From: a virus
Taxonomy: Duplodnaviria; Heunggongvirae; Uroviricota; Caudoviricetes
Reading direction: 5' to 3' (one strand)
Virus record (IMG/VR): IMGVR_UViG_3300029653_000081
Span: 1 to 34,518 of that record
DNA length: 34,518 nt
Position 1 is the first letter of the stretch, and each line of letters starts with the position of its first letter. The notes beneath the pieces were generated by a model. It was given only the letters and a program-made list of their open reading frames with translations. It did no database searches and had not been told where the DNA came from. The position numbers and the translations under genes were made by a program. Below are positions 1 through 33,502 of the stretch, piece after piece.

Positions 1-126
1 CGGCATAACCTGAATCTGAGGCAGCACCTGGCACGGCTGGGACGGAAGTCGCTGTCGTTCTCAAAATCGGTGGAGCAGCATGACAAAGTCATCGGGCATT
101 ATCTGAACATAAAACACTATCAATAA
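1..126 (+). CDS. insB: IS1 transposase InsB, C-terminal 41 codons (5' part outside window)
   Basis: Translation [41 protein letters not shown] with TAA at 124-126. Confidence 0.8.
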
Positions 127-141
127 GTTGGAGTCATTACC
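1..141 (+). mobile_element. IS1 insertion sequence, terminal portion (continues beyond the window start)
   Basis: Positions 121-141 (caataagttggagtcattacc) are the reverse complement of the IS1 terminal inverted repeat GGTAATGACTCCAACTTATTG; frame-1 translation of 1-126 is an InsB C-terminus ending ...[12 protein letters not shown]. Recognised from memory of IS1. Confidence 0.8.
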
Positions 142-305
142 CCATATGACGATAATATTTCGTTATATTCTTCAATAAGAGCTTTTCTTGTTTCCACTGA
201 ATTACAATCTACCTTCGAAAAGTCAACTTCATCAGCAAAAACATTAAATGTTAAAAAGGAAAGCACTAAAAACAAACGAATCAGCATAAATCCACTCCTA
301 CGCAT
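120..305 (-). pseudogene. Small signal-peptide protein gene, apparently truncated by the IS1 insertion
   Basis: ORF begins MRRSGFMLIRLFLVLSFLTFNVFA (signal-peptide-like). Its last six codons and stop (VMTPTY*) are read from inside the IS1 terminal repeat, so the native 3' end appears replaced. Confidence 0.5.
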
Positions 306-308
306 GGA

Positions 309-440
309 TTAATAGTCATTGATCGCAAAGGCGTAAACTTGCCAAAGGTATTTCGTATAATCGGTACAAATCTCCTTTACGCTTGATGCTGCATTAACAG
401 TCCCAGCCATAAATAATAACGATAGTAATAGTTTTCTCAT
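309..440 (-). CDS. Small secreted protein (43 aa) with predicted signal peptide
   Basis: ATG at 440 preceded by AGGTGAGG on the minus strand; translation MRKLLLSLLFMAGTVNA/ASSVKEICTDYTKYLWQVYAFAINDY*. Not in the ORF track (below its size cut-off). Lies upstream of the immunity-I region, where P1 has sim genes, but no homology is shown. Confidence 0.45.
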   Translation of the reverse strand: MRKLLLSLLFMAGTVNAASSVKEICTDYTKYLWQVYAFAINDY

Positions 441-536
441 TATAACCTCACCTGCCTTATAACCCATTTAGGGTACATATTTTCGCCTTTAAAAAAAAGA
501 GGTTATTAGATCCAATTGTGTATTTATTAAGCAGAT

Positions 537-553
537 AATGCTCTAATAAATTT
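537..553 (+). promoter_or_regulatory. C1 repressor operator (Op51-like) upstream of the c4-icd-ant operon
   Basis: AATGCTCTAATAAATTT matches the asymmetric 17-bp P1 C1 operator consensus ATTGCTCTAATAAATTT at 16 of 17 positions. Confidence 0.8.
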
Positions 554-724
554 GTATTTTTAAGTCACGAATGCTATCTTTTCGCATCATATTGACCTTT
601 TAATCGTTCAGGCTTATAGTTCCGCCGTCGTAGCAAATTCTGCGACCGGGTTTAGCAGCCTGAATGATTGTGCGGACAGCCGCAGATATCCGATATTGCG
701 GTATTTTTGTGTCCGTAAAACCGC

Positions 725-805
725 GTTACGCCCAAATTATGGTGGGGCGTGATGGGGAGGCTTCGGCCTGCTGGTTTCACAATCGCCAGTCTGCTAACCC
801 CGTCA
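725..805 (+). ncRNA. c4: c4 antisense RNA (immunity-I repressor RNA); boundaries approximate
   Basis: Segment 778-797 (cacaatc...ctgctaa) is antiparallel-complementary to two target pairs: ttagcag/gattgtg at 652-672 and again at 822-856. The downstream gattgtg overlaps the icd Shine-Dalgarno (gagg 855-858). A UUCG-loop hairpin lies at about 747-760. Confidence 0.55.
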
Positions 806-867
806 CGTCCTGCCACCTGTTTAGCAGCGGGTAGCAGGTTGTTAAACCTGATTGTGAGGCCGTAACT

Positions 868-1089
868 ATGGTTAATGCCAATCCTTGCGCACGCCCAGAA
901 TTCATCTGGCGTTTCTATTCCTGTAAAAAACACCACTATCACTTCGTTATCGCAGCAACTGAAGACGAAGCACGCTCTCAATTGCCTGATGGCCCCTGCA
1001 TTTTTACTGCCTGTTTTTCAACTAACTCGCGCAATTCACTTAGTTACTGGAGCCTCCCCTTCTCTGCCGACGTTCAGGGGGGTTTATGA
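868..1089 (+). CDS. icd: Icd-like protein (interference with cell division), 73 aa
   Basis: ATG at 868 with SD GAGG 9 nt upstream; stop overlaps the ant start (ATGA at 1086-1089). Position between c4 and ant matches the P1 immunity-I operon. Confidence 0.6.
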   Translation: MVNANPCARPEFIWRFYSCKKHHYHFVIAATEDEARSQLPDGPCIFTACFSTNSRNSLSYWSLPFSADVQGGL

Positions 1090-2129
1090 AAAAACCTCTC
1101 GTCACCCGTAATGACATAGCCGAAGCGATCGCCCTGCATACTGCCTGTATACCGACACGGGAGATCCCCGGCGCAATTGCCAACTATTTCATGATAACCA
1201 GGCGTTTTTATACCCGAACAGATAAGGCTGTGATCAACAGGCTACTGATAGCCGAGATCAGGGATTATTTGATTGAACAAGGACGTCTACGTTACGCAAC
1301 GGTGGCAGCAGAAATGAGAAAGGAGGCACATAGAATGACCAGTAATAATTTGAATGTTAAAAAACCAGCACCTGTTGCTTCAGCAACGCCAGCACCAGCC
1401 GTGAATGTCATCCCCACCACCGGAGACACAATCGACAGCCTGACACTGTTAAAGATGGTCAATGAAGCGCGTAAGTTATGTGGGGAACCAGAGGTTCGGA
1501 ACAACAAATTCATCGAAAAAATACTCGACGAATTAGAAGGTGAGGACGGTTACACAAAAAGTGCAACCGTGCCGCCAGGTGGCGGTACGCCTATGGTTGT
1601 CATAACCATGACCTACAAACAAGCCCTGCGAGTCGCCGCGCGCGAATCGAAAGCGGTCCGCCGTTCGCTGATCGACAAACTGGAAGAATTGCAGCAGGCA
1701 AACTCCCCTACCCCATCGATCCCCCAAACATTACCAGAAGCCCTACGCCTGGCTGCCGAGTTGGCAGAACAGAAATTGCAGCTGGAACAACAGCTGGTGG
1801 CCGCAGCCCCTAAAGTCGATTTTGCCGACCGGGTATCAGTGGCTAATGGAATCCTGATCGGGAACTTTGCAAAGGTCGTTGGACTTAAGCAAAACGCCCT
1901 TTTCTCATGGTTGCGCCAGAACGGCATTCTCATGGCTTTTGGTGCGCGCAAAAACGTACCGCGCCAGCAGTACATTAACGCCGGGTATTTCACGGTGAAA
2001 GAAGTGGTGCTGGATGATGAAAATGGCTACCAGATACGGCTGACGCCCCAATTAACGGGTAAAGGCCAGCAGTGGTTAACTCGCAAGCTACTTGATGCTG
2101 GTTTGTTAAAACCAGTAGCAATAGGTTAA
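1086..2129 (+). CDS. ant: Antirepressor Ant (Ant1; an internal in-frame start could give Ant2)
   Basis: 347 aa. C-terminal about 130 aa (PQTLPEALRLAAELAEQK...GKGQQWL) is paralogous to the KilA C-terminus at 2293-3093, i.e. an antirepressor C-terminal domain. Translationally coupled to icd. Confidence 0.75.
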   Translation: MKKPLVTRNDIAEAIALHTACIPTREIPGAIANYFMITRRFYTRTDKAVINRLLIAEIRDYLIEQGRLRYATVAAEMRKEAHRMTSNNLNVKKPAPVASATPAPAVNVIPTTGDTIDSLTLLKMVNEARKLCGEPEVRNNKFIEKILDELEGEDGYTKSATVPPGGGTPMVVITMTYKQALRVAARESKAVRRSLIDKLEELQQANSPTPSIPQTLPEALRLAAELAEQKLQLEQQLVAAAPKVDFADRVSVANGILIGNFAKVVGLKQNALFSWLRQNGILMAFGARKNVPRQQYINAGYFTVKEVVLDDENGYQIRLTPQLTGKGQQWLTRKLLDAGLLKPVAIG

Positions 2130-2137
2130 CAAAAGAA

Positions 2138-2166
2138 AAAACCTGCCAGCAAACTGGCAGGTTTCT
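2138..2166 (+). terminator. Stem-loop terminator after ant
   Basis: aacctgccag-caaa-ctggcaggtt perfect 10-bp stem followed by tct. Confidence 0.5.
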
Positions 2167-2206
2167 GAGCAGATCGACCAACCCGATCTGGATCGAGTCA
2201 GAAAAA

Positions 2207-2223
2207 TTTGCTCTAATAAATTT
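2207..2223 (+). promoter_or_regulatory. C1 repressor operator (Op53-like) overlapping the kilA-repL promoter
   Basis: TTTGCTCTAATAAATTT, 16 of 17 to consensus; TTGCTC is a -35-like hexamer with TATAAG/ATAAGT about 16 nt downstream. Confidence 0.8.
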
Positions 2224-2292
2224 CGTTTTATAAGTGCAAAGAATCACCATTTCGAGCTGGTGATTGAAGGTTGATGCAAATTTGGAGAAAAA

Positions 2293-3093
2293 ATGCAACA
2301 AACATTCAATGCGGATATGAATATATCAAACCTTCATCAAAATGTCGATCCTTCAACCACTCTGCCTGTTATTTGTGGTGTTGAAATTACGACCGACCGC
2401 GCTGGCCGTTACAACCTTAATGCTCTACACAGAGCGAGCGGACTCGGTGCCCATAAAGCGCCAGCTCAATGGCTAAGAACGCTGTCAGCCAAACAGCTCA
2501 TCGAAGAGCTTGAAAAAGAAACTATGCAGAATTGCATAGTTTCGTTCGAAGGCCGTGGCGGCGGCACTTTTGCCCATGAATTGCTCGCTGTGGAGTACGC
2601 AGGCTGGATTTCTCCCGCGTTTCGGCTGAAGGTAAACCAGACATTTATCGACTATCGAGCCGGAAGATTACAACCTGCTATTCCGCAGAGTCTCCCTGAA
2701 GCTCTCCGTTTGGCTGCCGACCTGGCAGAGCAAAAGCAACGGCTGGAGCAAAAAATGCTTATGGATGCACCTAAAGTCGAATTCGCCGAACGCGTTGCTA
2801 CCGCCAGCGGGGTTCTAATCGGCAACTATGCCAAAGTGCTCGGTCTGGGCCAAAACTATCTCTTCACCTGGTTGCGTGATAACGGAATTCTGATCGCAAC
2901 CGGTGAACGCAGGAACGTCCCCAAACAAGAATACATATCCCGTGGGTATTTCACCCTTAAAGAAACCGTGATCGATACAAGCAATGGAAGCAGGATTTCT
3001 TTCACGACTCGTATAACCGGCAAAGGTCAGCAGTGGCTGATGAAGCGATTGCTTGATGCTGGTGTGCTGGTACCTGTCGCGGCAACGCGCTAA
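2293..3093 (+). CDS. kilA: KilA (KilA-N domain protein of the lytic replicon operon)
   Basis: 266 aa; ATG at 2293 with GGAG SD. The C-terminus is paralogous to Ant. Position under the Op53-like operator and upstream of repL. Confidence 0.75.
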   Translation: MQQTFNADMNISNLHQNVDPSTTLPVICGVEITTDRAGRYNLNALHRASGLGAHKAPAQWLRTLSAKQLIEELEKETMQNCIVSFEGRGGGTFAHELLAVEYAGWISPAFRLKVNQTFIDYRAGRLQPAIPQSLPEALRLAADLAEQKQRLEQKMLMDAPKVEFAERVATASGVLIGNYAKVLGLGQNYLFTWLRDNGILIATGERRNVPKQEYISRGYFTLKETVIDTSNGSRISFTTRITGKGQQWLMKRLLDAGVLVPVAATR

Positions 3094-3122
3094 CAGACGT
3101 AGTAAGAACCACCAGCATTGTA

Positions 3123-3968
3123 ATGCTGGCTAAAGTCACTTTCCTGAGCTGTATAACGATGAGCGATTTTACTTTTTCTGGCTATGAATTGGCCTGCTTT
3201 GTAACACACTCCGGTCTATCCCGTAGCGCCGGGCATATCCTGTCGCAATGTGCAAATCTAGCGGCAACAACCAGTGAATACTTCATTCACAAGCCTCACC
3301 GCCTGATCGCGGCAGAAACTGGTTATAGCCAATCAACCGTCGTTCGTGCATTCCGTGAAGCTGTAAACAAAGGAATCCTGTCTGTAGAGATTGTTATCGG
3401 CGATCACCGTGAACGTCGCGCTAACCTGTACCGGTTTACACCATCCTTTTTGGCCTTCGCACAACAAGCCAAAAATGCGCTGATTGAAAGCAAATTAAAG
3501 ATCTCTTCAGCGGCAACCAAGGTTAAAGCTGTTCTCGCTAAGACATTGGCTTTATTTAATTTTTTATCCACACCCCCATGTCAAAATGATACCCCCTCCC
3601 CCTGTCAGGATGACGTGGCAATAAAGAATAAGAAGTCACAAGTTAAAAAAACAAAAAGATCAGTTTCCGGCGGTGCCGGAACGAGCAGACTCAAAAAATT
3701 GACTTCATGGATCGCTGAGGCAAAAGCAAAGGCTGACAATCTGCGGTTATCCAAAAAACGCGCTCAAAAACATGAGTTCAAGCAGAAAGTAGAGGCGGCA
3801 GCGCGGAAATATGCTTACCTGAAGAACAAGCGTTCTCCTGATATTGGCGGGGTATCAAACTTCGATAATCTGCCGCATTGCATGATGGTAAACGAAGCTC
3901 TTAATGCGGTTTTAGCCAAAAATAAAGATAACGAACAATGGGGTATACCGGCGGGATTCAGAGGGTGA
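3123..3968 (+). CDS. repL: RepL-like lytic replication initiator; start uncertain
   Basis: 281-aa ORF immediately downstream of kilA in the same operon. Assigned by synteny with the P1 lytic replicon, not by motif. Confidence 0.55.
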   Translation: MLAKVTFLSCITMSDFTFSGYELACFVTHSGLSRSAGHILSQCANLAATTSEYFIHKPHRLIAAETGYSQSTVVRAFREAVNKGILSVEIVIGDHRERRANLYRFTPSFLAFAQQAKNALIESKLKISSAATKVKAVLAKTLALFNFLSTPPCQNDTPSPCQDDVAIKNKKSQVKKTKRSVSGGAGTSRLKKLTSWIAEAKAKADNLRLSKKRAQKHEFKQKVEAAARKYAYLKNKRSPDIGGVSNFDNLPHCMMVNEALNAVLAKNKDNEQWGIPAGFRG

Positions 3969-4194
3969 TAGATTGCTCTAATCTGGAGTCACCTGGCGTT
4001 TTCAGTATGGATTTTCTTTGGCGCGGTCTGGCCATTAGGGATCATGTTTGCTGCAACATTTCTTCTGATGTGGATATTCACCCTTCCCGGTGATTTCTAT
4101 AGAAAAAAAGCCAGACATTGATACAATCATTGCGGGTGCTTGAGGCTATCTGCTTCAGGCATTACCCGAAAAGCAGATAGAAGAAAGCCCCAGA

Positions 4195-4255
4195 TAACAT
4201 TACGCGTCCTGCAAGACGCTTAACATTAATCTGAGGCAATATCTATGCTTAGCAT
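4195..4255 (-). ncRNA. sok: sok-like antisense RNA (position inferred)
   Basis: Expected opposite the mok translation initiation region. A minus-strand TTGACC -35-like hexamer is at 4284-4289. Boundaries are not determined. Confidence 0.3.
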
Positions 4256-4451
4256 ACGTAGATTAGCCTCTTACCGACCAAAAGGTCAAGGAGAAGCAGG
4301 CTATGAAGCAGCAAAAAGCGATATTAATCGCTCTGATCGTCATCTGTTTAACCGTCATTGTGACGGCACTGGTAACGAGGAAAGACCTCTGCGAGGTACG
4401 AATCCGAACCGGCCAGACGGAGGTCACTGTCTTCACAGCCTACGAATCTGA
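4245..4451 (+). CDS. mok: mok-like overlapping reading frame
   Basis: 68-aa ORF starting upstream of, and overlapping out of frame with, the hok-like CDS, as in hok/mok/sok loci. Confidence 0.45.
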   Translation: MLSIRRLASYRPKGQGEAGYEAAKSDINRSDRHLFNRHCDGTGNEERPLRGTNPNRPDGGHCLHSLRI

Positions 4452-4458
4452 AAGGTAA
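4303..4458 (+). CDS. hok: Hok/Gef-family type I toxin (51 aa)
   Basis: ATG at 4303, TAA at 4456. Translation MKQQKAILIALIVICLTVIVTALVTRKDLCEVRIRTGQTEVTVFTAYESER has the Hok hydrophobic helix and the conserved TRK.LCE.R...E...F.AYES pattern. Confidence 0.85.
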   Translation: MKQQKAILIALIVICLTVIVTALVTRKDLCEVRIRTGQTEVTVFTAYESER

Positions 4459-4532
4459 GAGACCTGGCGGGGAGAGATCCTCGCCACTCTTCGTGTGTCA
4501 GGTATCCTCAATGCACCCTTTCCTCTCCAAAT

Positions 4533-4556
4533 AAAAAAGCTCCCGAAGGAGCTTTA
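4533..4556. terminator. Stem-loop between hok (+) and the minus-strand structural genes
   Basis: aaagctcc-cgaa-ggagcttt with A-run on one side; on the minus strand it is followed by TTTTTATTT, so it likely terminates the minus-strand operon. Confidence 0.6.
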
Positions 4557-4574
4557 AAATACAAGGGATGACTC

Positions 4575-5084
4575 TTAATCCCACTCAATCCAGTTGTAGA
4601 CGATACGAAGTGACGGGCGCACAGCGGCAGTCACATCTTCGGTACTAAAGTCGATTGCATCACTGTAGATTTTGCAGTCCAACATTTCAATTGTTGTAGC
4701 AGCTTTTGTCACAGCGTTAACCCCGGAAGATTTGGATTCAGGGGTAGCAGCCATCGTGATATCAACATAGTCCTTCGCCGCAATGCGATCTTTAATGAAC
4801 TGAAGAATATCGCCTTCGATAGTCTCCACGCACTGGACCTGGATTTCCCCAGAGTTTCGAATTGGACCGTGCTGGTTGAACTTCACACCATTCGGACCAT
4901 AGTCCTCCACATCCTCGCGGGTCATTTCAGGAATTTGCGACGTGCGAACCAGTACGCTGATATCTTCATGGCCTGCAAAAGTGAGCTGGAATTCAGAAGA
5001 TACCAGTCGTTCGCCTTTGGCCGCGTTGGCAGTATAGCGGCCCTTAATAAATTTACGGTTTCCCTTAGTGTTATTGTGCCCCAT
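4575..5084 (-). CDS. Virion structural protein, possibly tail tube or baseplate (169 aa)
   Basis: Size and position in the minus-strand structural block next to the sheath-like gene. No diagnostic motif identified. Confidence 0.35.
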   Translation of the reverse strand: MGHNNTKGNRKFIKGRYTANAAKGERLVSSEFQLTFAGHEDISVLVRTSQIPEMTREDVEDYGPNGVKFNQHGPIRNSGEIQVQCVETIEGDILQFIKDRIAAKDYVDITMAATPESKSSGVNAVTKAATTIEMLDCKIYSDAIDFSTEDVTAAVRPSLRIVYNWIEWD

Positions 5085-5095
5085 ATAAAATCCTT

Positions 5096-5677
5096 TTACT
5101 GGAACGCCCGAACAATATCGGAGCTGTTATATATCGAAGAACCGGTCAACTGGAGGTTGACGGTGTTTTTCAGGAAATGTCCATTGCTGTCCCTGGGCGC
5201 ATCGAGATCGAAACTTATGTCCTGGATAGCGACATCAATGATGTTGATCCGGCGACCAATGTTTAGCGTCACACGCTCCGGGATTCGACCACCAATACTG
5301 GCATCTTTAAGTTCCGGGCTAATCATCGCTGACAATGCGGCGATAGCTCCTGAAACCTCCGTGAATGGGTCAAACAAAGCGATGAAAGTTACTGGCAGCG
5401 TGAAAGTCGGCGGTGTTCCCCCTTCCCAAACCATTAAGCTGTTCCAACGGGCAACCGACGTTGTTTCAGTACCAACCTGCGCAAAACCACTGAAGGCACC
5501 AGCAACAGATCCCATGGACATACCGGTAAACGGCGCTTCCCAATTCTGGGCCATGTTCATTGCCGCTCCCTGGCTGATATATCCGGTAACCTGGTACTGA
5601 GAGTTCGTTAAAGTAACTTTCAGATATGGCGATACACCGTCAGCCTGGCTGTAAACCCCATAAGGAATAGGTGCCAT
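5096..5677 (-). CDS. Virion structural or morphogenesis protein (193 aa)
   Basis: Co-oriented and tightly spaced within the structural block. Confidence 0.3.
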   Translation of the reverse strand: MAPIPYGVYSQADGVSPYLKVTLTNSQYQVTGYISQGAAMNMAQNWEAPFTGMSMGSVAGAFSGFAQVGTETTSVARWNSLMVWEGGTPPTFTLPVTFIALFDPFTEVSGAIAALSAMISPELKDASIGGRIPERVTLNIGRRINIIDVAIQDISFDLDAPRDSNGHFLKNTVNLQLTGSSIYNSSDIVRAFQ

Positions 5678-5712
5678 TCAAGTTAAAGGCCGGAGTTCTC
5701 CGGCCTCCTCCT

Positions 5713-6528
5713 TTAGCCAAGGCGCTTACGGCGCAGTTTCATTGACTTTTTGCGGGCAAGTTTTGCCGCGCCGGTCTGGGCTTTTCGACGCGCTTTTTTC
5801 AGCGCCGATTTTTGAGCCGCAGTCAGACGTTTTTTACGCAGGCGTTTACGGATGAGTTTGATCTCACCGTTACGAACAACCTTCTTAAATGCTTCAGTCA
5901 GCATTTCATCAGAAGTGCCAGCAACAACAAACGCCGCTTCCAGTTCGTCGCGGTCGTCGCTATCTAAACCAGCGATAGAGGCACCAACATCAGCAGCTGC
6001 GTCGTCGTCTTCATCGTCAGCCAGTGCTTCGATCAGGTCATCATCTACACCGCATGCTGCGAGGAAGTCAGCAACATTTGCCCATGCTTCGTTATAGGCA
6101 TCGTCCTGTTCTTCTGTAACTTCGGAGTCGTCGTCATCAGAGATACCAGCGATAGCCTGAACGAAACCATCAAGGGAGTCGAAAGTCAGATCACCGCTAT
6201 CAGCCCAGGCGAAAACGGCGTCGGCCGCATCACTCAACGCATTTTGCATAGCACTTCGATTTGCAGCTTCCAGAATCATCTGGTGCGCCTGTTCGACGGT
6301 CCATTCTTTACCGTCTTTCCCTTCCAGGATTTGCTCAGGAGCCTGGGCAGATGGAACGTTATCGTTAGTCTGTGCCGCCGGTTCCGGATTATTATTAATA
6401 ACCGGATCTGTTGGCGGTTCAGCGCTTGCTCGGGCAGACTCCATCAGCTGCACAGGATCAGAGTTCAAAGCGAAACGAGACAGTCCATTCCCCAAAAATG
6501 CCCCGGATTGAAAAAAGTTTTTGCTCAT
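5713..6528 (-). CDS. Highly acidic protein with a polybasic C-terminal tail (271 aa), function unknown
   Basis: D/E-rich middle region (DDDDSEVTEEQDD, ADDEDDDAAAD) followed by KLIRKRLRKKRL...RKKSMKLRRKRLG. Confidence 0.4.
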   Translation of the reverse strand: MSKNFFQSGAFLGNGLSRFALNSDPVQLMESARASAEPPTDPVINNNPEPAAQTNDNVPSAQAPEQILEGKDGKEWTVEQAHQMILEAANRSAMQNALSDAADAVFAWADSGDLTFDSLDGFVQAIAGISDDDDSEVTEEQDDAYNEAWANVADFLAACGVDDDLIEALADDEDDDAAADVGASIAGLDSDDRDELEAAFVVAGTSDEMLTEAFKKVVRNGEIKLIRKRLRKKRLTAAQKSALKKARRKAQTGAAKLARKKSMKLRRKRLG

Positions 6529-6537
6529 TGTATTCCC

Positions 6538-8127
6538 TTACTTAATAAGCAGCGGTACGCCCTGGATACGACGGGCTACGCCAGTCGGGCAGCAGGCCCA
6601 GACTACTTCCCATTTATCGAATTCCGCCTGCGTAACTTTCAGCACATACGGTTCTGTACCGTCAGCATCAGGATCACGAGGAGCCACCAGAGCGCCGGAG
6701 GCGACAAAGCGATCTAAAAGTTTGGTCATCCCTTTAGTCAGGCCAGCCGCAGTAATACCGTCCGGGCTATGCTTCATCTGTCGGGCTAACTGGACAAAGA
6801 AACGGCTGATTGCATTCATCAGGGATGGGACGTGCTGGAAGTGCAGATAGTTATCCTGCGTGCAGCAAGTTAAAGCATCGTCGATGATCATCTGGCCAGA
6901 GGTGCCAACAGATACTTTATTGAGACGGCCCTTGACCATTGCTTCTTCGTCCGGGGTATCTTCCGGATACAGCGGTTGAATTGACGCACGAGCAATGACG
7001 GCACGTTCTTCACCAGCCGGTGAGTAATGCCAACCGCCGACATCAGAGTTTTTCTTGACGCCACGAGCTTTCGCCGCATACGCCACGCCAGACAGACCAA
7101 AGACCACACGGGATTGGGTCCATTTGTCTTTGCAGGAGAACGGGTAGTGATAGACAGCACAGCTTACATAATCGGTACCAAGTAAACCGGTATCTTCAAC
7201 AGCAGAGATCGCTTCCGTGTACGTCAATGTCGGTTTGACATCAAAGAAGCCATCAATCAGGCGATCTGCACAGATTTTACCTAATGCGGTGATAGCCGCA
7301 TTGTCATAGCAGCCCAGGCCAAGAACAGCGGTGTACATGTACGGCGCATTATTCAGCACTTTAACCGCACGCAGGTACGCAGCGGTTGAGATTTTCGCCT
7401 GATCGCCGTTGGTACCGCCAGTGAACGCCAACGATTTTTTGTTTGTTACTTTCGCTGTCGAAATCAGCTCTTCATTAACAACCGCGCGCAGATATTTAGA
7501 ACGGGCTTCCAGAGCCGTAGGCAGATAACACAAGCGGCCCATGTCATCTTTCGCTTCTTCCGCCAAAGACACAGTGTGTGTCTCCAGGGTCGTTACCACG
7601 CCGAGCGAAGTCGTCTGGGTCAGTTTTAAGAGGAAGCGTTCATTACCCGCGCTGTCCGCTGTTGCCGTTTCGATGGTTAACTCACGGGTAGGTGAAATAC
7701 ACGGATCACCATCATCAACGTAGATAGCAAAGGCTTCGCCACTATCAAGTTCAATTTCAGAACCGTATGGCAACGCACTGTAAGCCGGTTCGCCTGATTC
7801 ATCGAACATAATAATCGGGAACTTCGCATCATCCGGAACAGCGCGAACAACATAACCAGACGTTTGCTGAATAGCTTCGTATACATGGCGAATTGGTTCG
7901 AACTGTGAGCCGGAAGACGGCTTCAGCGGTTCGCCGAGAACATCTTCGTAATTGGACTCAGTAACCGCAAGAACAGTAAACGGCTTGCCACGCGCAAATA
8001 CGCCAATACCAGCCCATAAGCTGCTATTTAATGCAACACCGGTAGATAACGTCGCATCGGCATTGATCGGGCTAACCGCGACGCCGGATGCATTACCTAA
8101 TGACTGTTGAATTGAATATTGAGACAT
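6538..8127 (-). CDS. Putative contractile tail sheath protein (529 aa)
   Basis: Size and position between the small structural genes and the capsid-like gene, as recalled for P1 gene 22. No motif check possible here. Confidence 0.4.
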   Translation of the reverse strand: MSQYSIQQSLGNASGVAVSPINADATLSTGVALNSSLWAGIGVFARGKPFTVLAVTESNYEDVLGEPLKPSSGSQFEPIRHVYEAIQQTSGYVVRAVPDDAKFPIIMFDESGEPAYSALPYGSEIELDSGEAFAIYVDDGDPCISPTRELTIETATADSAGNERFLLKLTQTTSLGVVTTLETHTVSLAEEAKDDMGRLCYLPTALEARSKYLRAVVNEELISTAKVTNKKSLAFTGGTNGDQAKISTAAYLRAVKVLNNAPYMYTAVLGLGCYDNAAITALGKICADRLIDGFFDVKPTLTYTEAISAVEDTGLLGTDYVSCAVYHYPFSCKDKWTQSRVVFGLSGVAYAAKARGVKKNSDVGGWHYSPAGEERAVIARASIQPLYPEDTPDEEAMVKGRLNKVSVGTSGQMIIDDALTCCTQDNYLHFQHVPSLMNAISRFFVQLARQMKHSPDGITAAGLTKGMTKLLDRFVASGALVAPRDPDADGTEPYVLKVTQAEFDKWEVVWACCPTGVARRIQGVPLLIK

Positions 8128-8187
8128 AACTTTCCCTGTTATGCGCCCCGCACGGGGGCGCTATGTTAAACGGAGAACTTCCCCTGA

Positions 8188-9915
8188 TTACTCAGAGTCA
8201 CCGGCATCAATCGTGTCGCCGCTAATGAAGTTAAGCCCGCCTTTTTTGGCCATTGTCAGCGTTACACGAGTGAAGTAATCAGCGCCGTTGCGTGGGTGCA
8301 TATCGTTGATAGCCGAACCCCACAGCGTGGTACGGTTGACCAGCGCCGGAGTGGTCGGATGCTGGAACGGGATGGCCGGGACAGCATCACCAGTCACGAA
8401 GCCTGCTTTACCCGGATTTTCATCACGGACGTAGCACAGCACATCCATCGAGCTGAACTGAATGTTCTCTGTCGTTAAGTTCTTACAAATACCAGCAGGT
8501 ACTTCGTACACTTTCACGTTACCGAACAGGGTACCGATGTAGTGAACATACGGAGTCTGGATATAGTCTTCGGCTGGCTGGAAGAAATCCTTCGGCAACT
8601 GTTTGAAGAAAGATGCTGCATCAGCACCAGCAAACATCCCCATCGCACCAGAAGATTTAACGCGCTCAATAATGTCGCGATATACAGTCTGGAATTTGCC
8701 ACGAATGATGGTTGCCCATACATCAAAGGACTGGTTAACCGGCAGAGCGATGTCAAAGGTGTCGGTCGCAAGAGTACGCCAGATCATGATGCGAAGACGC
8801 AGCATATCCTGTTCATGAGACAGGTATTCCTTCAGGGTGCGGAACTGTAGGGAACCCAGGTCCAGACCAAATTCACGCTGTGCTTCATACGCCGCCTGTA
8901 CCGTGTGCTCAGCCGCGATAACGAACTGGCTTGGGAACAGGGTGTATTTCTTCATTTCGTGGTTGATCAGCGGGATCAGCTCAGGAGCGGCTTCAATATT
9001 GATTTCCGTCTCAATTGCGATCTCAGTGCCTTTATCCGGCGCTTTGGAGAACGACAGTGCAATCTGACCAATGTTGTAGTTCAGAGAGCAGGTAACAGTG
9101 ATTTGCTCACCAGCAGCATTAGTAAACGAGTGAAGTAGGCTGCCGGAACCGTTATCAACAACAGACTTAATACGGTTAACGTAGATATTAGTGCGACCTT
9201 TTCGGATTGGTACATTCTGGCCTTCGAAGTCTTCCATCTTGAAGGTTGCGGTTTTGCTGGTGCCATCGGAGCTTGCCACCAGCACATAGCGGCGGCGTAA
9301 CTGGCTGTACACACCGACGGATTGCATGTCCAGAACATCACCAGCAGCATAAGAACCAAAAGAGGAACCTGCCACGTTAAAGACTTCATAGATGTCGGAC
9401 TGGTCACGCGTAACCGGAATGAAGGTACACGCATCAGCGGTAGCTGCCCCCAACTGAACAGGCAGGATCATCGCGAGGAATAAAGGCAGACGCATAACAC
9501 CGTCAGAAACGCTCATCATCTCTGCTGCGACGGATTCCAGCATCGCTTTATTAGTGGCATCCATGCTATTGCGGGTGGACTCAATCAGGCAGTTTTCCAG
9601 CGTCTGGTGGCAGGAGGCCAGAATTTCCGGACGCGGCATAGATTTATGTGCTGCGGCGTAGTCAGCCAGTGCACTTGCCCACGCTGTAGCGATTTGAGCG
9701 GTGGCATTATCAGAGATACCCGCAAAAACCGGGTCTTTACGTGCAGCTTCAAGGATAGATGCGGCACGCGCGGCATCATCTTTAATGAATTGGTTATCAG
9801 TACCGAACTGCGCAGTGCTTGCCCAGCCAAGCACAGCTTTAGAGCGTTTTGCGATATCTGCAATACGATTCTGGTATTCGCGTAAGTTACTCAATTTACT
9901 CTTCCTTAAACACAA
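8188..9915 (-). CDS. Putative major head protein (575 aa as tracked; real start probably a few codons in)
   Basis: Large ORF adjacent to parS, as recalled for P1 gene 23. The tracked start is TTG; AAGGAAGAG precedes a second TTG five codons downstream. Confidence 0.4.
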   Translation of the reverse strand: MCLRKSKLSNLREYQNRIADIAKRSKAVLGWASTAQFGTDNQFIKDDAARAASILEAARKDPVFAGISDNATAQIATAWASALADYAAAHKSMPRPEILASCHQTLENCLIESTRNSMDATNKAMLESVAAEMMSVSDGVMRLPLFLAMILPVQLGAATADACTFIPVTRDQSDIYEVFNVAGSSFGSYAAGDVLDMQSVGVYSQLRRRYVLVASSDGTSKTATFKMEDFEGQNVPIRKGRTNIYVNRIKSVVDNGSGSLLHSFTNAAGEQITVTCSLNYNIGQIALSFSKAPDKGTEIAIETEINIEAAPELIPLINHEMKKYTLFPSQFVIAAEHTVQAAYEAQREFGLDLGSLQFRTLKEYLSHEQDMLRLRIMIWRTLATDTFDIALPVNQSFDVWATIIRGKFQTVYRDIIERVKSSGAMGMFAGADAASFFKQLPKDFFQPAEDYIQTPYVHYIGTLFGNVKVYEVPAGICKNLTTENIQFSSMDVLCYVRDENPGKAGFVTGDAVPAIPFQHPTTPALVNRTTLWGSAINDMHPRNGADYFTRVTLTMAKKGGLNFISGDTIDAGDSE

Positions 9916-9939
9916 GGCACTTGTGTGAATCCCTTTTCG

Positions 9940-10070
9940 GAAGAGATTTTATTGAAAGTCACTTGTTGACTTTCTCGCTAAAAGTAATTTTTTAAATTTT
10001 TTGTGCGGGGGAGGGGGGCAAGTAAAACAGGCGTGAAATCGTGGGAATTTCAGTCTGAAATTTTCCATGA
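9940..10070. promoter_or_regulatory. parS: parS-like partition site downstream of parB
   Basis: Heptamers related to ParB box A (gtgaaat 10033-10039, atttcag 10047-10053, ctgaaat 10055-10061) next to an AT-rich tract (10070-10100) that could be an IHF site. Confidence 0.5.
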
Positions 10071-10160
10071 ATATCTATATATATCATATATTTATACATG
10101 AAATAGGCGCGGGACATTTTAGACAGGGGAGGGGGCTAAAGCCGCCTCCCACCAGCGGGA

Positions 10161-11126
10161 TTATTCCCCAGCAGACATTTTCCCAATGATTTTTTTTATT
10201 GCTTCGTCAATTTCAGTTTGCACTTCAGACGGGAGTCTGGAGAACTCGTAGGCGACAACCCGTTTTTTCGGATCGGACTTCTTTCGGGCATATTGGCGAC
10301 GGTCAGAGAAGTCTCGCAGCTTCTCAACCACCACAGATTTAACCGGCGCGGGCTTCAGGCTTTTGCTTTCCGCTTTGAAGATAGCCAGTATCTTCGCTTT
10401 ATCCTCTTTCGCGCCCTCAGTCTCTGCAATTCGTTCGCGCACCGTATCAACCAGCTCTTCAATCGGCACGCTTTTAGCGTTAGCATCCTCGGCGATCTGG
10501 AGCAGTAACTGGTAATCTGGAAGGGCGAGATCGCTGGCTACGGGGAAGACAGCAATCATCTCATCCGGCACCGCGGCAGCCTGGAAAGCTCGCGTCACTT
10601 TTGCCTTTGAGATGTTCTCAGCTCGGGCGATCTCTTCTTTGGTCATATTCTTACCGTACATAACCTCGAAGCGTTTACCCAGCTCGCGCAGAGTGTGTTC
10701 GCGGGCTGTCTGGATATCAATGGCCAGCTGGCGGGCATCCGCCAGGCTGATCTCATCTTTCGTCACCAGAATCTCAAATTTCGTTTCATTGAAGATACAC
10801 GCAGCGCGGCGACGCGATCCGTCCAATACCTCAATGCGCTCCCCAACCATACGACCGATAGCCGGGAAGAACTGTTGCAATTTAATGGTGCGGGAAATAT
10901 CGCTTACCGACTCAGGGGTGAGCAGAGACTGATCGCGGCCGTTAACTGCCGGGTCAACGAACGTGCGCGACTCAATCTCACCACTCAGCACGACGGTAAG
11001 CAAGAATTTAGCCTGGCGGCCAGATTTTAGGGTAAAGGTTTTGGTGCCTTCACTGCCTTCAAGCATGCGAGCAAACTCGGAGCTATTCTTGCCCAGCACT
11101 CGTCCACGGGAAACTATTTTTTTCAT
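10161..11126 (-). CDS. parB: Partition protein ParB
   Basis: 321 aa with ParB-like segments (GRDQSLLTPESV, LDGSRRRAA, SKAKVTRAFQAAA); overlaps the parA stop. Confidence 0.9.
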   Translation of the reverse strand: MKKIVSRGRVLGKNSSEFARMLEGSEGTKTFTLKSGRQAKFLLTVVLSGEIESRTFVDPAVNGRDQSLLTPESVSDISRTIKLQQFFPAIGRMVGERIEVLDGSRRRAACIFNETKFEILVTKDEISLADARQLAIDIQTAREHTLRELGKRFEVMYGKNMTKEEIARAENISKAKVTRAFQAAAVPDEMIAVFPVASDLALPDYQLLLQIAEDANAKSVPIEELVDTVRERIAETEGAKEDKAKILAIFKAESKSLKPAPVKSVVVEKLRDFSDRRQYARKKSDPKKRVVAYEFSRLPSEVQTEIDEAIKKIIGKMSAGE

Positions 11127-12334
11127 GCCGCCTCACCCCTAACAAACTCAATTCGATCAAACACAGCCTTAGTGAAACGCTCGGCCTCGGTTCGTGCCTT
11201 CTTCAGCGCCTCTGCACTGCCTGGATACGATTGCGGGTTGGCACTGATTACGGTGTCGAAAGACTCGCCGCATCGCTCAAAGCCATCCAGACGAGGCAGA
11301 GAAGAGTCCAGAATGTTGCTGGCGTAAACCTCACGCGCAAGGCTGTGTGATGTCTCGTGATCGCGCTTGCCGGTCATCTTCGACATAAAACCAATGCTGG
11401 CGCTCAAACGCGGTTCTACGCCTTCCTCCTCCAGTTGCTCCAGCATTTCTGGCAGACGGGTGAGATATTTCAGTGTTGAGTGGAAGTCAACCTGGGCTGG
11501 TGGGGTAGGGGTAAGCAGCAAATCGCTGGCCGCCAGACCGTTGAGCAGGAACGGATCCAGGTGTGGACCGGTATCAATAAAGATAAAGTCATAATCATCC
11601 GCAACACGATCAATGATATTGCGTCGAAGGATTTCGTACTGATTTTGTCCGGGAAGATGCTCTTCAACCAGCTCTTTCCATTGGCTGGCAACAAAGCCAT
11701 CGTCGATAGAGGCTGGAATCACGTCTACGCCAGGAACGATGGTCGGACGAATCACCTCTTTGCGTAGCGTCTCCGCGTCCAGGTCGTTCAGCATCGCCTG
11801 CGCGGCGGTTTCCAGGATGGAACCAATACTGTGAGTATGGTCGAGGAACATTGTGCTGGATGCCTGAGGGTCAAGGTCAATTACCAGAATGCGCAGATCG
11901 TGACGCAGTAAATCCTGATGCACACGCAGAGCGTGCGCCAACGTGACTGTGGAAACCGTTTTGGATACGCCACCCTTCAGGTTTACGACAAAAATAACGT
12001 AAGGCGATTTGTGAATGTCGCGATATTTGGGGATCTTACGGTGGGCATAGATATCAATGACGTTCTGGATGGTCAGCGCGTACTGTTCAACGTTACCGAC
12101 CTGTTTCTTGTTGAACTGGTACCCATCATCTTCCATCTCTTTGATGGCCTGCTCCACAATACGGCGGCTCAGCTTCGGCAACTTTGCCACAGCGTTACGA
12201 GTGAACGTCTGATAATACTCGGTCTGATTGAACTCTTTGCGCTGATCTTCAATATCCTGACTCATGGCCTTAAGTAATGCGCTTGCACGAAGAGCTATGG
12301 TGCCGACACCGCCGTAATCGCGTTTCATCATCAT
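11123..12334 (-). CDS. parA: Partition ATPase ParA (type Ia)
   Basis: 403 aa; deviant Walker A NLKGGVSKTVST, plus VIDLDPQ and FIDTGPHLD motifs; long N-terminal extension typical of P1-type ParA. Confidence 0.9.
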   Translation of the reverse strand: MMMKRDYGGVGTIALRASALLKAMSQDIEDQRKEFNQTEYYQTFTRNAVAKLPKLSRRIVEQAIKEMEDDGYQFNKKQVGNVEQYALTIQNVIDIYAHRKIPKYRDIHKSPYVIFVVNLKGGVSKTVSTVTLAHALRVHQDLLRHDLRILVIDLDPQASSTMFLDHTHSIGSILETAAQAMLNDLDAETLRKEVIRPTIVPGVDVIPASIDDGFVASQWKELVEEHLPGQNQYEILRRNIIDRVADDYDFIFIDTGPHLDPFLLNGLAASDLLLTPTPPAQVDFHSTLKYLTRLPEMLEQLEEEGVEPRLSASIGFMSKMTGKRDHETSHSLAREVYASNILDSSLPRLDGFERCGESFDTVISANPQSYPGSAEALKKARTEAERFTKAVFDRIEFVRGEAA

Positions 12335-12430
12335 CTCCTTATCATTTCGTATGAGTGAATTGTACGTTTGATTCTGCTACGTGCAACTTTTTTTGATTCG
12401 TGCGTCAATTATTGCACGTAAAGAAATGGC

Positions 12431-12730
12431 GATGTGGCTATTAGATGTGTGCTGGAGGGATGATGCAGGACCAGAATGTGCGATAGAGGGAAGTCGCATT
12501 AAATTATGTGCTGTGGAGGGATCGCTGGTATCAAATATGTGTGCTGGAGGGAAAGGCAGAGAATTACATGTGCACTGGAGGGAAAAACGGATGGACAGAT
12601 GTGTGCTGGAGGGAAAGTCTGGGCAAACTGCGGGGCGTCCCCCTCCAGCGCACATCAAAAACAGGAAATTAGACAAGCCTTCCCGGCAGCACACATATTT
12701 TTAATGCAGCTTCCCTCCAGCACACACTTA
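12431..12730. repeat. incA: incA iteron array (about nine 19-bp RepA-binding repeats, both orientations)
   Basis: Direct copies of (G)ATGTGTGCTGGAGGGAAA-like repeats near 12444, 12474, 12504, 12536, 12567, 12598 and inverted copies near 12639, 12678, 12710. Confidence 0.85.
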
Positions 12731-13588
12731 TTCTGGGAGTTTCAGCTTTGGATTGCGAGAATGGACGATTACAAAACTTTCCCGGCCTTTCTTCTCAATT
12801 GAACAGTCGAGATAGCCGATTGTTTTAAGCTGTTCTATCGCTTTCTTAATGATACGGTTTTGCTCGCCAACAGCTGACTGCAAAGCCAGGCGCTCACGGA
12901 TTCGGGCGAAAGATAGCGGCAACGGATTCTGCGGAAGGCTTTCGATGAAAGTGTAAATGGCTTGTGCAGCTTCTTTCTTCGGAAGGGCACGCAAGGCGTG
13001 GTGTTGCAACAGAACGCGATAATCAAGCTGGAACAGCTCCCACAGCTTCGAATCAGCCTCCAGCTCTATCAGATCAAGGTCAGCATCAAAACGACCGACC
13101 TTTAGCAGACCAGTCTGATAGCCGCCTTTAGCATCTTTTCCGCGCTTAAAAGCGATACCCTTGTTACGTAAGCGTCCAAGTGATTCATGAATGGTTAAAC
13201 GCAGTTTCGCATCCAGACGTTTTGAGGGGAAACCACAGGCTTTAGCGAATTCCTGAAACGATAACTGGATGGTGTTTGAGGACAAGCCGTATTTGCTGAA
13301 CGCGTAGATGACACCGATCCACGTTTTGAAATCAGTATCCATATCGAGTCGAGGACCGGTGATTTTAATATCATCGTAACCCTCGGCTTTAGCTATCTCC
13401 AGCTGGGAAAACGCTTTGGTGGCATCAATCTCTTTACTTTCTCCTTTGCTCTTTGATGGCTTCGGAACGAATACCCCCAAGCGCATCAATGCTACAGGCT
13501 GGACAGTGTTGTTTGAATTAACTGTTAGTTCTTTTGCCTTACTTTCAATGTCTGCGTAAAGAATATCGGAGATAAATGATTGATTCAT
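12728..13588 (-). CDS. repA: Plasmid replication initiator RepA (286 aa)
   Basis: Flanked by iteron arrays on both sides and followed by parA-parB, the P1 plasmid replicon arrangement. Confidence 0.9.
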   Translation of the reverse strand: MNQSFISDILYADIESKAKELTVNSNNTVQPVALMRLGVFVPKPSKSKGESKEIDATKAFSQLEIAKAEGYDDIKITGPRLDMDTDFKTWIGVIYAFSKYGLSSNTIQLSFQEFAKACGFPSKRLDAKLRLTIHESLGRLRNKGIAFKRGKDAKGGYQTGLLKVGRFDADLDLIELEADSKLWELFQLDYRVLLQHHALRALPKKEAAQAIYTFIESLPQNPLPLSFARIRERLALQSAVGEQNRIIKKAIEQLKTIGYLDCSIEKKGRESFVIVHSRNPKLKLPE

Positions 13589-13599
13589 ATTACTTTTTC

Positions 13600-13870
13600 C
13601 GAATTGTGTGGATAGTTTTTATAAGTGGTGATAACTACCCAGGCTTTCCCGTCAGCACACATCCTATATCCCGCCAGCACACATTAGCAACCCGTCAGCA
13701 CACATTTTTATCCCTCCAGCACACATCGTTTTCCCTCCAGCACACATCGCGATACACTTCTAAGCCAGACGTGGCGCGGCCTGCAACGATCAGGGATCTA
13801 TATGGATCTAATTGGGATCTGTATGGACCTAATTATTGGATCTACCCAGTGGATAATGTGGATAAGTGAA
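13600..13870. other. oriR: Plasmid origin (oriR-like) including incC iterons
   Basis: Five inverted iterons (13645-13748, ...cagcacacat...); five heptamer repeats (G/T)GGATCT at 13793-13843, four with GATC; DnaA-box-like sequences tgtggatag (13607-13615) and agtggataa/tgtggataa (13848-13866). Confidence 0.85.
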
Positions 13871-13905
13871 AAACCGGCCAACATAGCCGGTTGGAAGGAA
13901 GGGTA

Positions 13906-14298
13906 TTATTCTACGCTTTCGATAAGAAGACCATGTTCATAGCATTTAAGCTCATCGCCTTCATACAGGAACTGGTATCCAATACCACCATATTCAGGCA
14001 CATTAGGGAATAACTCATCACTTACCGAAGAACAAATCACACCAATGCAGCGATCAACGCCTTCTCGTTCTTCAGTGCTGAAAAAATCCTCTTCGGTAAG
14101 AACATGAGTGCATTGCTCATCAGCATAGGTCGGAAATACATGCTCGATGCAATCCGGGTGTTTTAAACCAAGCTGATCGGCAAGCTCGAAAGCATGACGG
14201 TATTGTTCAGATCCTGGCTTGCCAACAGTGATTTGCTCAATTTTGTAGATTGAAGTCGCTTTGTTGATAGTTTGCTTTACTGTTACTTTATCAGACAT
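13906..14298 (-). CDS. Hypothetical protein (130 aa)
   Basis: ORF with coding-like composition next to the origin; no motif recognised. Confidence 0.35.
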   Translation of the reverse strand: MSDKVTVKQTINKATSIYKIEQITVGKPGSEQYRHAFELADQLGLKHPDCIEHVFPTYADEQCTHVLTEEDFFSTEEREGVDRCIGVICSSVSDELFPNVPEYGGIGYQFLYEGDELKCYEHGLLIESVE

Positions 14299-16473: not shown

Positions 16474-17371
16474 GCACTGGAAAAATATTACTATTTATAA
16501 ACTTTCTCGTGAGGCGGATCTGACCGACTTAGAAGATAAAAAGAAAATGATCCTTTTCACGCCATGCGGTAGTCAGGATATGGCCAAGTTCGGTTTTGTA
16601 TCGCCATTTGGTGATAATTCCGAAGTTATCGCTATGCATGGAAATGGTTTTATCCTTGTTGAAGCAAAGCGCGAAACAAAAATTCTTCCCCCGCCGGTTA
16701 TCCAGCGAGCTATTCAAGAAAAAATTGAAAAACTTGAGCAAGAACAAGCGCGTAAACTGAAGAAAACAGAGAAGGACTCCCTGAAAGACGAAGTTCTGCA
16801 TTCTCTTCTGCCACGGGCTTTTTCAAAGTTTTCTGTTATCCAGGCGATCTACGACGGTTCAACTAAACGTATCTATATCAATGCCAGCGCGCGGCAGGCA
16901 GAGGATATGCTCGCGCTTATGCGTAAGTCTCTGGGTTCTCTTCCTGTTGTGCCACTAAGTGTTGAAAATCCCATTGAGTTAACGCTGACCGACTGGGTAC
17001 GTGATGCTAGTGCTCCACAGGGATTTCAAATGGGGGATGCGGCAGAACTTAAGGCAGTGCTTGAGGATGGCGGTATCGCCCGAGTGAAAAAGCAGGATTT
17101 GGGAAGCGATGAAATTTCCACACACCTGGAAGCTGGCAAGCTCGTCACTAAGTTGGCACTCGACTGGCAGAACCGCATTAAATTTACACTGGACCATAAC
17201 TTCAGCATTACCAGCGTCAATTTTGCGGATGAATTGCTTGAGCAGAACTCTGATATTGATAGTGAAGATGTTGCGCAGCGACTGGACGCAGATTTCTTCC
17301 TATTGACCAGTGAAATTTCGTGCCTGGTTGATGCTCTGGTAAATGCCCTTGGTGGAGAGGCTAAGCAGTGA
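16466..17371 (+). CDS. rdgC: RdgC-family recombination-associated protein (P1 hrdC-like)
   Basis: 301 aa from [15 protein letters not shown]; [38 protein letters not shown] and GSLPVVPLS closely resemble E. coli RdgC as recalled. Confidence 0.8.
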
Positions 17372-28300: not shown

Positions 28301-28495
28301 CCGAACATTGGACAGCATTGCCGACTGTGATTTTACGGAAATAAATTCATAACCCTGATTTTGCAGGTCCTGAATCAGTTCACGTTCCAGGTCCGATTCG
28401 CTCTGGTAGCTGTCGCCTGTTGGCTCAGCTTTGATGTACTTATCAAGAACGATAAAGTTATTGGATTCAGCAATGGTGTGTGTCTGATGAGTCAT
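25379..28495 (-). CDS. hsdR: Type I restriction enzyme R subunit HsdR (1038 aa)
   Basis: Helicase motifs TTGSGKT and [10 protein letters not shown]; size and position after hsdM-hsdS. Confidence 0.9.
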
Positions 28496-28616
28496 AGCGC
28501 ATCCTTTGTGCCGTCTGGCAAGGGCCGGAAGGGGGGTAATGGTGACTTCCGGCGCGTAAAAAATAGTCTATATACTGACCGGGTGTTAAGGTGGTCCGAT
28601 CGGTAGCAATGATCAA

Positions 28617-29822
28617 TTAATTACTGGCAGTTTCAGGTTTCGGGAAACTGAACAGTAAATCACGGTAGTATTCGTATTGTTTCTGGCGCAACTCGATTTC
28701 ACGCGGAAGACCTTCGGTGATGGAAGCTGCGATTGCATCAAACTTATCCAGAATATCCACAATACGCCCCTGTTCGTCTAAAGATTTTTGAGGGTGAGAT
28801 GGGTATGGAATAGGTACTCTGACTTGTTTCAGTGCATTAGCATTAAACTGTGGTTGCCCACCACCAGATACTAATTTATTAGCCTGTTCCCAAAAAAAAT
28901 CACTTTGTGCAAAGTGCCAGTAATATTTGGCATTAATAATCGTTTTATTTAGGTTCAACTTTATTAAAAAACCAGCGTATACTGCTGGATAATCTTCTTC
29001 AAAAATCATTGTTTTACCAAAGGTTGCCCCAGTTCTTGCCATGAGTAAATCATTTTTGTCTAAGGTATATTTCTCATTTTCCTCATTTAATTCAACGTAC
29101 ATTGGGTTTTCTTTCGATAGCTTCCCGTCTTTATTTATGTCAGTAATTCTCACGAAACGGGCATCTCCTGAATCCATGGCTTTGGCTGCATATCCATATG
29201 TAAAATCTCCAATTTCCCCCAAAGTCTTCCACTCAACCTCACCATCTTTAAAACTCAACAACTGGTCGCGATAGTAGTTGTACTGTTTTTTACGCATGTT
29301 AAGCTCAGCGGTAAGCTCAGCGGTAAGTGCAGTAAATTTATCCAGAATCCGAACGATTTCAGACTGGATGGCAAGGGATTTTTCCGGATTATCCGGGCAG
29401 GGGATGGGGATAGGGAAATTCTCTAAGGTTGATAGCACGATATATGTCATTGCCGCGCTATTTGTTCTTTCCTCGAGATATTTCTTCAGGCTATGGCTAA
29501 GCACAAAATACAAAAATCTAACACTTACATTTTCGTCGAAATTTGTCAGAACATAGGTGCGCTGATAAGCCTCAAACTTGCCGATGTAATGCTTCACCTC
29601 ACCAACATTCGCATTGCCTGCAATCAGCAATGCCTCTGTATCCCAGCGGAATTTATCAATTTTGCTTGTCTCTTTGGCTGTCGTGAAGAACATATACTCT
29701 CCATCATCAACAGCCGCATTCGCATTAAGCTTTCCTGTTTCAATTTTGCAAGTTTGCCCAAGTGTCTTCCACTCAACCTCAACCCCATCCAGCAATTTTT
29801 CCAGATAACTCATCTCGCTCAT
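28617..29822 (-). CDS. hsdS: Type I specificity subunit HsdS (401 aa)
   Basis: Two target-recognition halves each ending in a conserved repeat ([19 protein letters not shown] and [19 protein letters not shown]); 4-nt overlap with hsdM. Confidence 0.85.
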
Positions 29823-33414: not shown

Positions 33415-33415
33415 A

Positions 33416-33432
33416 ATTGCTCTAATGTATTG
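33416..33432 (+). promoter_or_regulatory. C1 repressor operator upstream of lpa
   Basis: ATTGCTCTAATGTATTG, immediately after the pdcB stop. Confidence 0.7.
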
Positions 33433-33502
33433 CTATTTCTTTAATCGAGGGTATTATATTCGACGTTGATTAGTTGACATGGGCTAATCAGTAGGTGACA
33501 GG

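Follow-up and report, generated by a model that had tools for sequence, protein, structure and literature searches.

The 34,518-nucleotide stretch of Caudoviricetes DNA analyzed here in its entirety, which we refer to as the window (IMG/VR record IMGVR_UViG_3300029653_000081), very probably opens in the right arm of a 3,242-bp IS1 composite transposon inserted in the simB gene of a P1-type phage-plasmid. The composite consists of an IS1, 1,706 bp of Escherichia coli chromosomal DNA ('yigE-ysgD-corA), and a second, inverted IS1, such that the IRR ends point outward. It transposed into codon 55 of simB within the AT-rich simA-simB-simC operon, duplicating the 9-bp target CCATATGAC and leaving a fusion of SimB residues 1 to 55 to the sequence VMTPTY. 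Features at the left end of the window are collected in Table 1.

Table 1. Positions of the IS1 end, the sim genes, and the adjoining regulatory sites in the window.
Feature	Position	Strand	Description and basis
Outer end of IS1 (IRR, insB distal)	1-141	+	3′ end of insB and terminal inverted repeat; match to IS1 copies
simB::IS1 fusion ORF	120-305	-	61 aa from the P1-annotated ATG at 305
Target-site duplication, right-hand copy, CCATATGAC	142-150		Also adjoins the opposite outer end of the IS1 pair in NZ_CP034659.1 and GCA_052938375.1
simA	309-440	-	43 aa, ATG at 440, GGTGAGG Shine-Dalgarno; P1 annotation, 309-467, 52 aa
Predicted sigma-70 promoters PsimB (439-467) and PsimA (505-531)	439-531	-	Transferred from NC_005856 via ungapped alignment
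C1 operator Oc4/Op51, AATGCTCTAATAAATTT	537-553	+	P1 annotation; P7-type relatives align from 539

An earlier note, made from the letters of the window alone, had placed the end of an IS1 terminal repeat at position 141, and that position is borne out by the reading of the repeat, by matches to IS1, and by alignment across the breakpoint. The IRR, which ends at base 141, has the minus-strand sequence GGTAATGACTCC..., and positions 119 to 141 give GGTAATGACTCCAACTTATTGAT on that strand. Just inside the repeat, the plus strand encodes the last 41 codons of insB in frame 1, with the InsB stop codon at 124 to 126. BLAST matched positions 1 to 141 to annotated IS1 copies in phage records at 98.6 to 99.3% identity (E value of about 1e-66), and all 141 bases were identical to the right IS1 arm of NZ_CP034659.1 (L004/L009), NZ_CP061756.1 (L003), GCA_052938375.1 (L010), and locus L018. 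The window start falls approximately 627 bp into the 768-bp IS1, and the rest of insA and insB was seen complete in relatives that share the junction. IS1 extends past the window start in each of the four relatives assembled beyond it. Two of them, for which both arms are available, have the whole 768-bp element, and in the remaining two the IS1 runs on to corA.

On the other side of the junction, the BLAST alignment of P1 to the window opened at base 142 (96.7% nucleotide identity), and the alignments of all IS1-free relatives with P1-type simB-simA opened at exactly the same base. IS1-free P1-like plasmids were 99.8 to 100% identical to the window over positions 142 to 620, and others were 99.7% identical over positions 142 to 14000. 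In a three-way alignment, the window read ...TCGTCATATGG followed by GGTAATGACTCC, whereas P1 and an intact plasmid read ...TCGTCATATGG followed by AATAACAGTGG. When 72,556 plasmids and 5,426 complete E. coli genomes were searched, the junction was found in only two records (NZ_CP034659.1 and NZ_CP061756.1), and the right-junction pattern matched three IMG/VR contigs. No match to the right-junction pattern was obtained in the genome contig collection, and no match to the left-junction pattern was obtained among IMG/VR viral contigs. Most related contigs with the junction, including the three from IMG/VR, ended inside IS1, and the window start is probably also a contig end.

The minus-strand ORF at the junction had been reported to take its last six codons and its stop from inside IS1, and VMTPTY followed by TGA was found there. 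The ORF encodes SimB residues 1 to 55, all 55 of which are identical to those of P1, and past residue 55 the 111-aa SimB of P1 reads ITVVDSYNQ.... An alternative start, the ATG at 287 with an AGGAG Shine-Dalgarno sequence, gives a 55-aa fusion, and this form is the PGAP call WP_001569404.1, labeled "hypothetical protein." Intact SimB matched phrog_14329 over its full length (E value of 2.6e-71), and simB lies between simA and simC and beside Oc4/c4. IS1-free relatives have a longer simB with a different 3′ end, and comparison with them reconstructed the intact gene with a single copy of CCATATGAC. By comparison, signal peptide cleavage is predicted to leave 87 residues of SimB, and the fusion lacks 56 of these, including the second of two cysteines, and truncated SimB is presumably nonfunctional. 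The fusion protein was found on 171 contigs from several sources under the label MULTISPECIES Enterobacteriaceae, and an intact 105-aa SimB was found on at least 1,000 contigs. The cluster also holds further short forms of SimB, most of which are partial sequences at contig ends; one has a different C terminus. We conclude that the simB fusion is a minority but widespread allele.

The earlier note described IS1 as having replaced the 3′ end of the gene. That description holds for the protein but not for the DNA, as the far side of simB is kept beyond the transposon in two complete relatives. In NZ_CP034659.1, simB contains a 3,242-bp unit (4900 to 8141 of locus L004) made up of an inverted IS1, 1,706 bp with a 5′ fragment of yigE ('yigE), ysgD, and corA, and an IS1. 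To the left of the unit, simB resumes with its 3′ part, and simC is intact and encodes 259 aa. Excision of the unit and one repeat left 2 mismatches in 550 positions and no gap relative to an intact plasmid. GCA_052938375.1, which was found by looking up the fusion protein, has the same full arrangement and the same CCATATGAC duplication. The 9-bp duplication that was to be sought at the other IS1 end is thus found in these two relatives, in which it flanks the unit on both sides; the sequence is present once in intact plasmids, and the window contains the right copy only. Because the 3′ part of simB and simC persist across a unit with CCATATGAC on both flanks, the primary event was a clean transposition into simB with no deletion.

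One other way to arrive at the same junction is an IS1-associated deletion that removed the 3′ part of simB and simC, and possibly more, such that no sim sequence would lie beyond the window start. Consistent with a deletion, NZ_CP061756.1, which is 99.97% identical to the window over positions 1 to 12660 and then diverges at an IS26 inversion, has a left arm cut by IS26, and BLAST of the whole plasmid found no simC, 3′ part of simB, pmgC, tub, or pmgB. The lack of the left-junction pattern in IMG/VR points in the same direction. In NZ_CP061756.1, however, the cargo with corA persists, as does the inner end of the left-hand IS1, and the loss of the far side from this plasmid is a secondary, lineage-specific IS26 event. 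Moreover, the window does not have the IS26 rearrangement of that plasmid, being uninterrupted from parA to repA. Identity between the window and NZ_CP034659.1, which keeps both simC and the duplication, was 100% over positions 1 to 725, after which the plasmid has an IS26, and again over positions 13589 to 34518, the last 21 kb of the window. IMG/VR and draft contigs differed from the window by 1 to 65 mismatches. We consider a deletion unlikely and a clean insertion the better account of the window.

The IS1 is very probably one arm of the composite rather than a solo insertion. All four relatives assembled past IS1 (NZ_CP034659.1, NZ_CP061756.1, GCA_052938375.1, and GCA_000351905.1 [L011], in which IS1 leads to corA and the scaffold then ends) have corA beside it. 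The left and right arms are distinguished by a few base differences: base 77 is A in the window and in the right arms of these four relatives and of L018, and it is T in the left arms. The T-to-A change at this position alters InsB from ...VELHD... to ...VEQHD... near its C terminus. Only 141 bp of IS1 is visible in the window and most junction contigs end inside IS1, as would also be seen if a lone IS1 had entered simB or if recombination between the arms had since lost the cargo. Set against the corA found in every resolved relative and the right-arm-specific base, a lone IS1 is improbable, and recombination between inverted arms would flip the cargo without removing it. Because of the base at 77 and the four of four resolved relatives with corA, the molecule from which the window derives most likely carries the corA cargo; that it still has simC is somewhat less certain.

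The window begins in a repeat of the kind at which short-read assemblies break, and a number of related contigs stop at nearly the same position, so a chimeric join that hides an intact simB was also considered. Two complete assemblies nonetheless contain both the junction and, at the opposite end of the insertion, the matching 9-bp duplication, and the junction also occurs in three IMG/VR contigs and in 171 contigs overall. As a chimera would not make a target duplication, we regard an assembly artifact as extremely improbable. We conclude that an insertion of the IS1-corA composite in simB is very probably what the left end of the window represents.

The composite is not confined to simB. 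A 3,242-bp unit with inverted 768-bp IS1 arms and outward IRR ends was present in NZ_CP034659.1, GCA_052938375.1, L018, L019, and L020, and relatives show the two arms, the outer duplication, and the occupation of more than one site that identify a composite transposon. A unit of the same length in plasmid pSD134209-1 is flanked by a different 9-bp duplication, TTAAATTTG, and two sites with different 9-bp duplications indicate that the unit moves as a whole. Of three further copies, one is chromosomal and flanked by a peptidase gene and a NACHT-domain gene, one is chromosomal and directly adjoins an mrk (type 3) fimbrial cluster, and one is in plasmid NZ_CP061751.1; a duplication was absent at the two chromosomal sites and in NZ_CP061751.1. 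The composite is also present at L025. Of 5,426 complete E. coli genomes, 172 (about 3%) contained the inner junction of IS1 with 'yigE. These are not instances of IS1 in native yigE, as the unit lay away from the native corA locus in all five of the records inspected. Chromosomes of E. coli match the cargo at 99.9% identity, and an origin of the cargo in another species was rejected on that basis. A search of the searchable literature returned no description of or name for an IS1-corA composite and no simB insertions, which is not proof of absence. The composite may be an undescribed transposon that is actively moving and by which E. coli strains acquire an additional Mg2+/Co2+/Ni2+ channel gene. 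Insertion into the dispensable sim slot of a P1-type phage-plasmid would have given it a transducing vehicle and turned off the superinfection exclusion of that phage, and the lineage with the insertion (171 contigs) would persist by virtue of the cargo or the lost exclusion and not by chance. We regard this larger scenario as doubtful.

The window was compared with the P1 record (NC_005856, 46786 to 48070), in which the minus-strand genes simC, simB, and simA occupy the segment immediately to the left of Oc4/Op51, c4, icd, and ant. The position upstream of the immunity region and the statement that sim genes sit beside c4 in P1 were both correct: immI (c4-icd-ant) adjoins the sim genes, and Rfam identified c4-a1b1 at 614 to 666 and the C4 antisense RNA at 735 to 820. 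PsimB and PsimA, which are predictions, are the only promoters annotated upstream of simB-simC. They were not recovered by a window-wide consensus promoter scan, and a promoter and terminator scan of positions 1 to 900 gave counts at chance level, with a hairpin at the junction that is a pattern match only. The G+C content is 26 to 28% around the insertion site, 33% in the sim operon, and 47% in the window, and IS1 prefers AT-rich targets.

The sim slot varies among P1-like elements, and Oc4/Op51 forms its border with the conserved immI region. Alignments of relatives to the window start at 142 for those with P1-type simB-simA, at 301 where another gene replaces simB, and at 539, within Op51, for those of the P7 type. 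Positions 301 to 309 and 537 to 553 are thus two recurrent homology breakpoints among P1-like elements. The slot contains a lipoprotein gene and a DUF5384 gene (upf50.5/upf50.0) in P7 and genes for signal peptide proteins of 215 and 158 aa in vB_EcoM-Ro157c2YLVW. The recurrent breakpoints point to cassette exchange of genes for envelope-targeted products. Comparisons of P1-like phage-plasmids have identified eight regions that are highly variable and low in G+C, and simABC is among these (PMC9603915; PMC6906374).

The second signal peptide ORF of the earlier note, of 43 aa, is present immediately upstream of simB and is simA. Its 52-aa form is identical to P1 SimA at 48 of 52 residues and to that of IS1-free plasmids at 52 of 52. 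By a rule-based check, both ORFs are signal peptide-like, with a basic n-region and a hydrophobic core (Kyte-Doolittle value of 2.4 to 2.6 over 10 residues), and the -3/-1 cleavage sites of the two are VNA/A and VFA/D. Beyond its signal peptide, SimA has only about 26 residues, and its match to phrog_3933 is confined to positions 1 to 41 of 213. In vB_EcoM-Ro157c2YLVW, the alignment of which to the window starts only at base 301, a 215-aa ORF begins at an ATG equivalent to that at window position 440. The first 32 residues of its product are identical to those of P1 SimA (36 of the first 38), and the protein reads on where SimA ends in AFAINDY and a stop. Because this ORF shares the ATG, and given the GGTGAGG Shine-Dalgarno sequence, the 43-aa start appears better supported than the 52-aa annotation in P1. 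We conclude that simA is probably a remnant, the N terminus, of a gene for a 215-aa secreted protein rather than an independent small gene. The arrangement suggests that simA was left over when a simB-simC cassette displaced the body of an older gene.

Homology to sim had been suspected and left unestablished, and the two ORFs are now established as simB and simA of the P1 sim operon; an effect of the insertion on a superimmunity function is therefore a reasonable expectation. Comparison of SimA, SimB, and SimC with PADLOC, Pfam, and PDB sequences gave no functional assignment and only subthreshold matches (TcpS, ComA, and a sortase chain, and a weak tRNA_anti-like [OB-fold] match in SimC). 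In the literature, Sim exclusion is attributed to an exported product, processed by signal peptidase, that blocks incoming P1 after adsorption. In relatives with the composite, 3.2 kb and two copies of IS1 separate the annotated sim promoters from simC. IS1 is strongly polar, and simC would therefore no longer be transcribed from the sim promoters. Transcription of the left-arm transposase genes runs outward and in the orientation of simC, and some read-through could occur. Sim is thought to stop superinfecting DNA from reaching the cytoplasm (Devlin 1982 and Kliem and Dreiseikelmann 1989, as cited in a passage of PMC8546580), and that passage describes the function of the exclusion protein, which is the product annotated as simC in the P1 record. 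Sim-mediated exclusion would accordingly be weakened or lost.

The cost of the insertion is likely small. CRISPR interference in P1 found simA, simB, and simC to be nonessential (PMC10695390). Because the sim genes are dispensable and LPsit, a late promoter for tail genes, lies downstream of simC in the P1 annotation, nothing essential would have been hit. The Sim phenotype was reportedly seen with multicopy clones in papers of 1982 to 1990, so the cost in a single-copy prophage may be nil.

Elsewhere in the window, a dmt-like DNA methyltransferase ORF of 960 aa (17368 to 20250, plus strand) has C5 and Dam domains. An apparent 341-aa intein (17599 to 18621) with Hint and LAGLIDADG domains lies in the C5 catalytic motif (...LVGGTP / CFTAGH...VVHN / CQAFSIAG, with slashes at the intein borders). 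It is absent in P7, SJ46, and some P1 records and present in OP279344.1, RCS47, and vB_EcoM-Ro157c2YLVW, and a literature search found no description of a dmt-like C5 intein. Phage matches to the ORF all stop at its nucleotide 2631 (window position of about 19998). By eye, the tail of the ORF looks like the end of another, VRR-NUC-like gene, and the Dam domain appears to contain a breakpoint left by a rearrangement or deletion. A sok antitoxin RNA (4134 to 4308, plus strand; Rfam score of 114 bits) and a hok-type toxin gene lie just after repL. A complete type I restriction-modification system in the phage-plasmid backbone occupies 25379 to 31381 on the minus strand (hsdR, 1,038 aa; hsdS, 401 aa; hsdM, 520 aa) and is followed by a DUF968 gene and lpa (32371 to 33955). 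No tRNA genes were found in the window, and NZ_CP061756.1 has three beside dmt. That plasmid (also L005, L022, and L023), the closest complete relative of positions 1 to 12660, is a heavily rearranged and apparently tail-less P1-like plasmid in which the counterpart of this segment is inverted between two IS26 copies. It also contains several IS26 elements, an IS1-flanked mrkABCDF cluster, an ars operon, and a clpK heat resistance locus.

The sim genes of the window occupy the same position as the P1 operon (pmgC to Oc4/Op51), divergent from c4-icd-ant and at the nucleotide identity given above, and by the rule-based check all three P1 products have signal peptide-like N termini. They differ from the P1 operon in that simB is cut after codon 55 by IS1 and simC lies outside the window. 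The cassettes of P7 and vB_EcoM-Ro157c2YLVW lie in the same slot (pmgC/tubA to Op51) and orientation and also encode signal peptide or lipoprotein-type products, but their sequences are unrelated to sim except for the N terminus of the 215-aa protein. The composite resembles transposons of the Tn9 and Tn1681 type in its 768-bp IS1 arms, its 9-bp duplication, its AT-rich target, and the carriage of cargo between IS1 copies. Unlike those transposons, its cargo is a housekeeping-type chromosomal segment and not a resistance or toxin gene, and its arms are inverted with IRR outward. The resident IS1 of P1 (isaA-IS1-isaB) is of the same family and on the same backbone but lies about 26 kb away (21.5 to 24.2 kb versus 47.7 kb on the P1 map), and the copy in the window is a separate insertion. 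The isaA-IS1-isaB region is also listed as variable (PMC9603915), with map positions in Table 1 of PMC6906374.

The insertion is an ordinary case of IS1-type transposition. Its target is an accessory gene that is dispensable and already known from a well-studied phage, and it does not change the current understanding of P1 immunity or IS1. Two details are added: the IS1 very probably belongs, as an arm, to a composite that carries corA, and simA is probably a remnant. For annotation, WP_001569404.1 can be recorded as a SimB-IS1 fusion, simA as a probable gene remnant, and the IS1 at the contig end as, very probably, an arm of the corA composite. The insertion is also a clean example of the entry of foreign DNA into the AT-rich sim slot that P1-like phage-plasmids have beside immI. 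Should the interruption indeed abolish exclusion, this lineage would be natural material for testing the roles of SimB and SimC.
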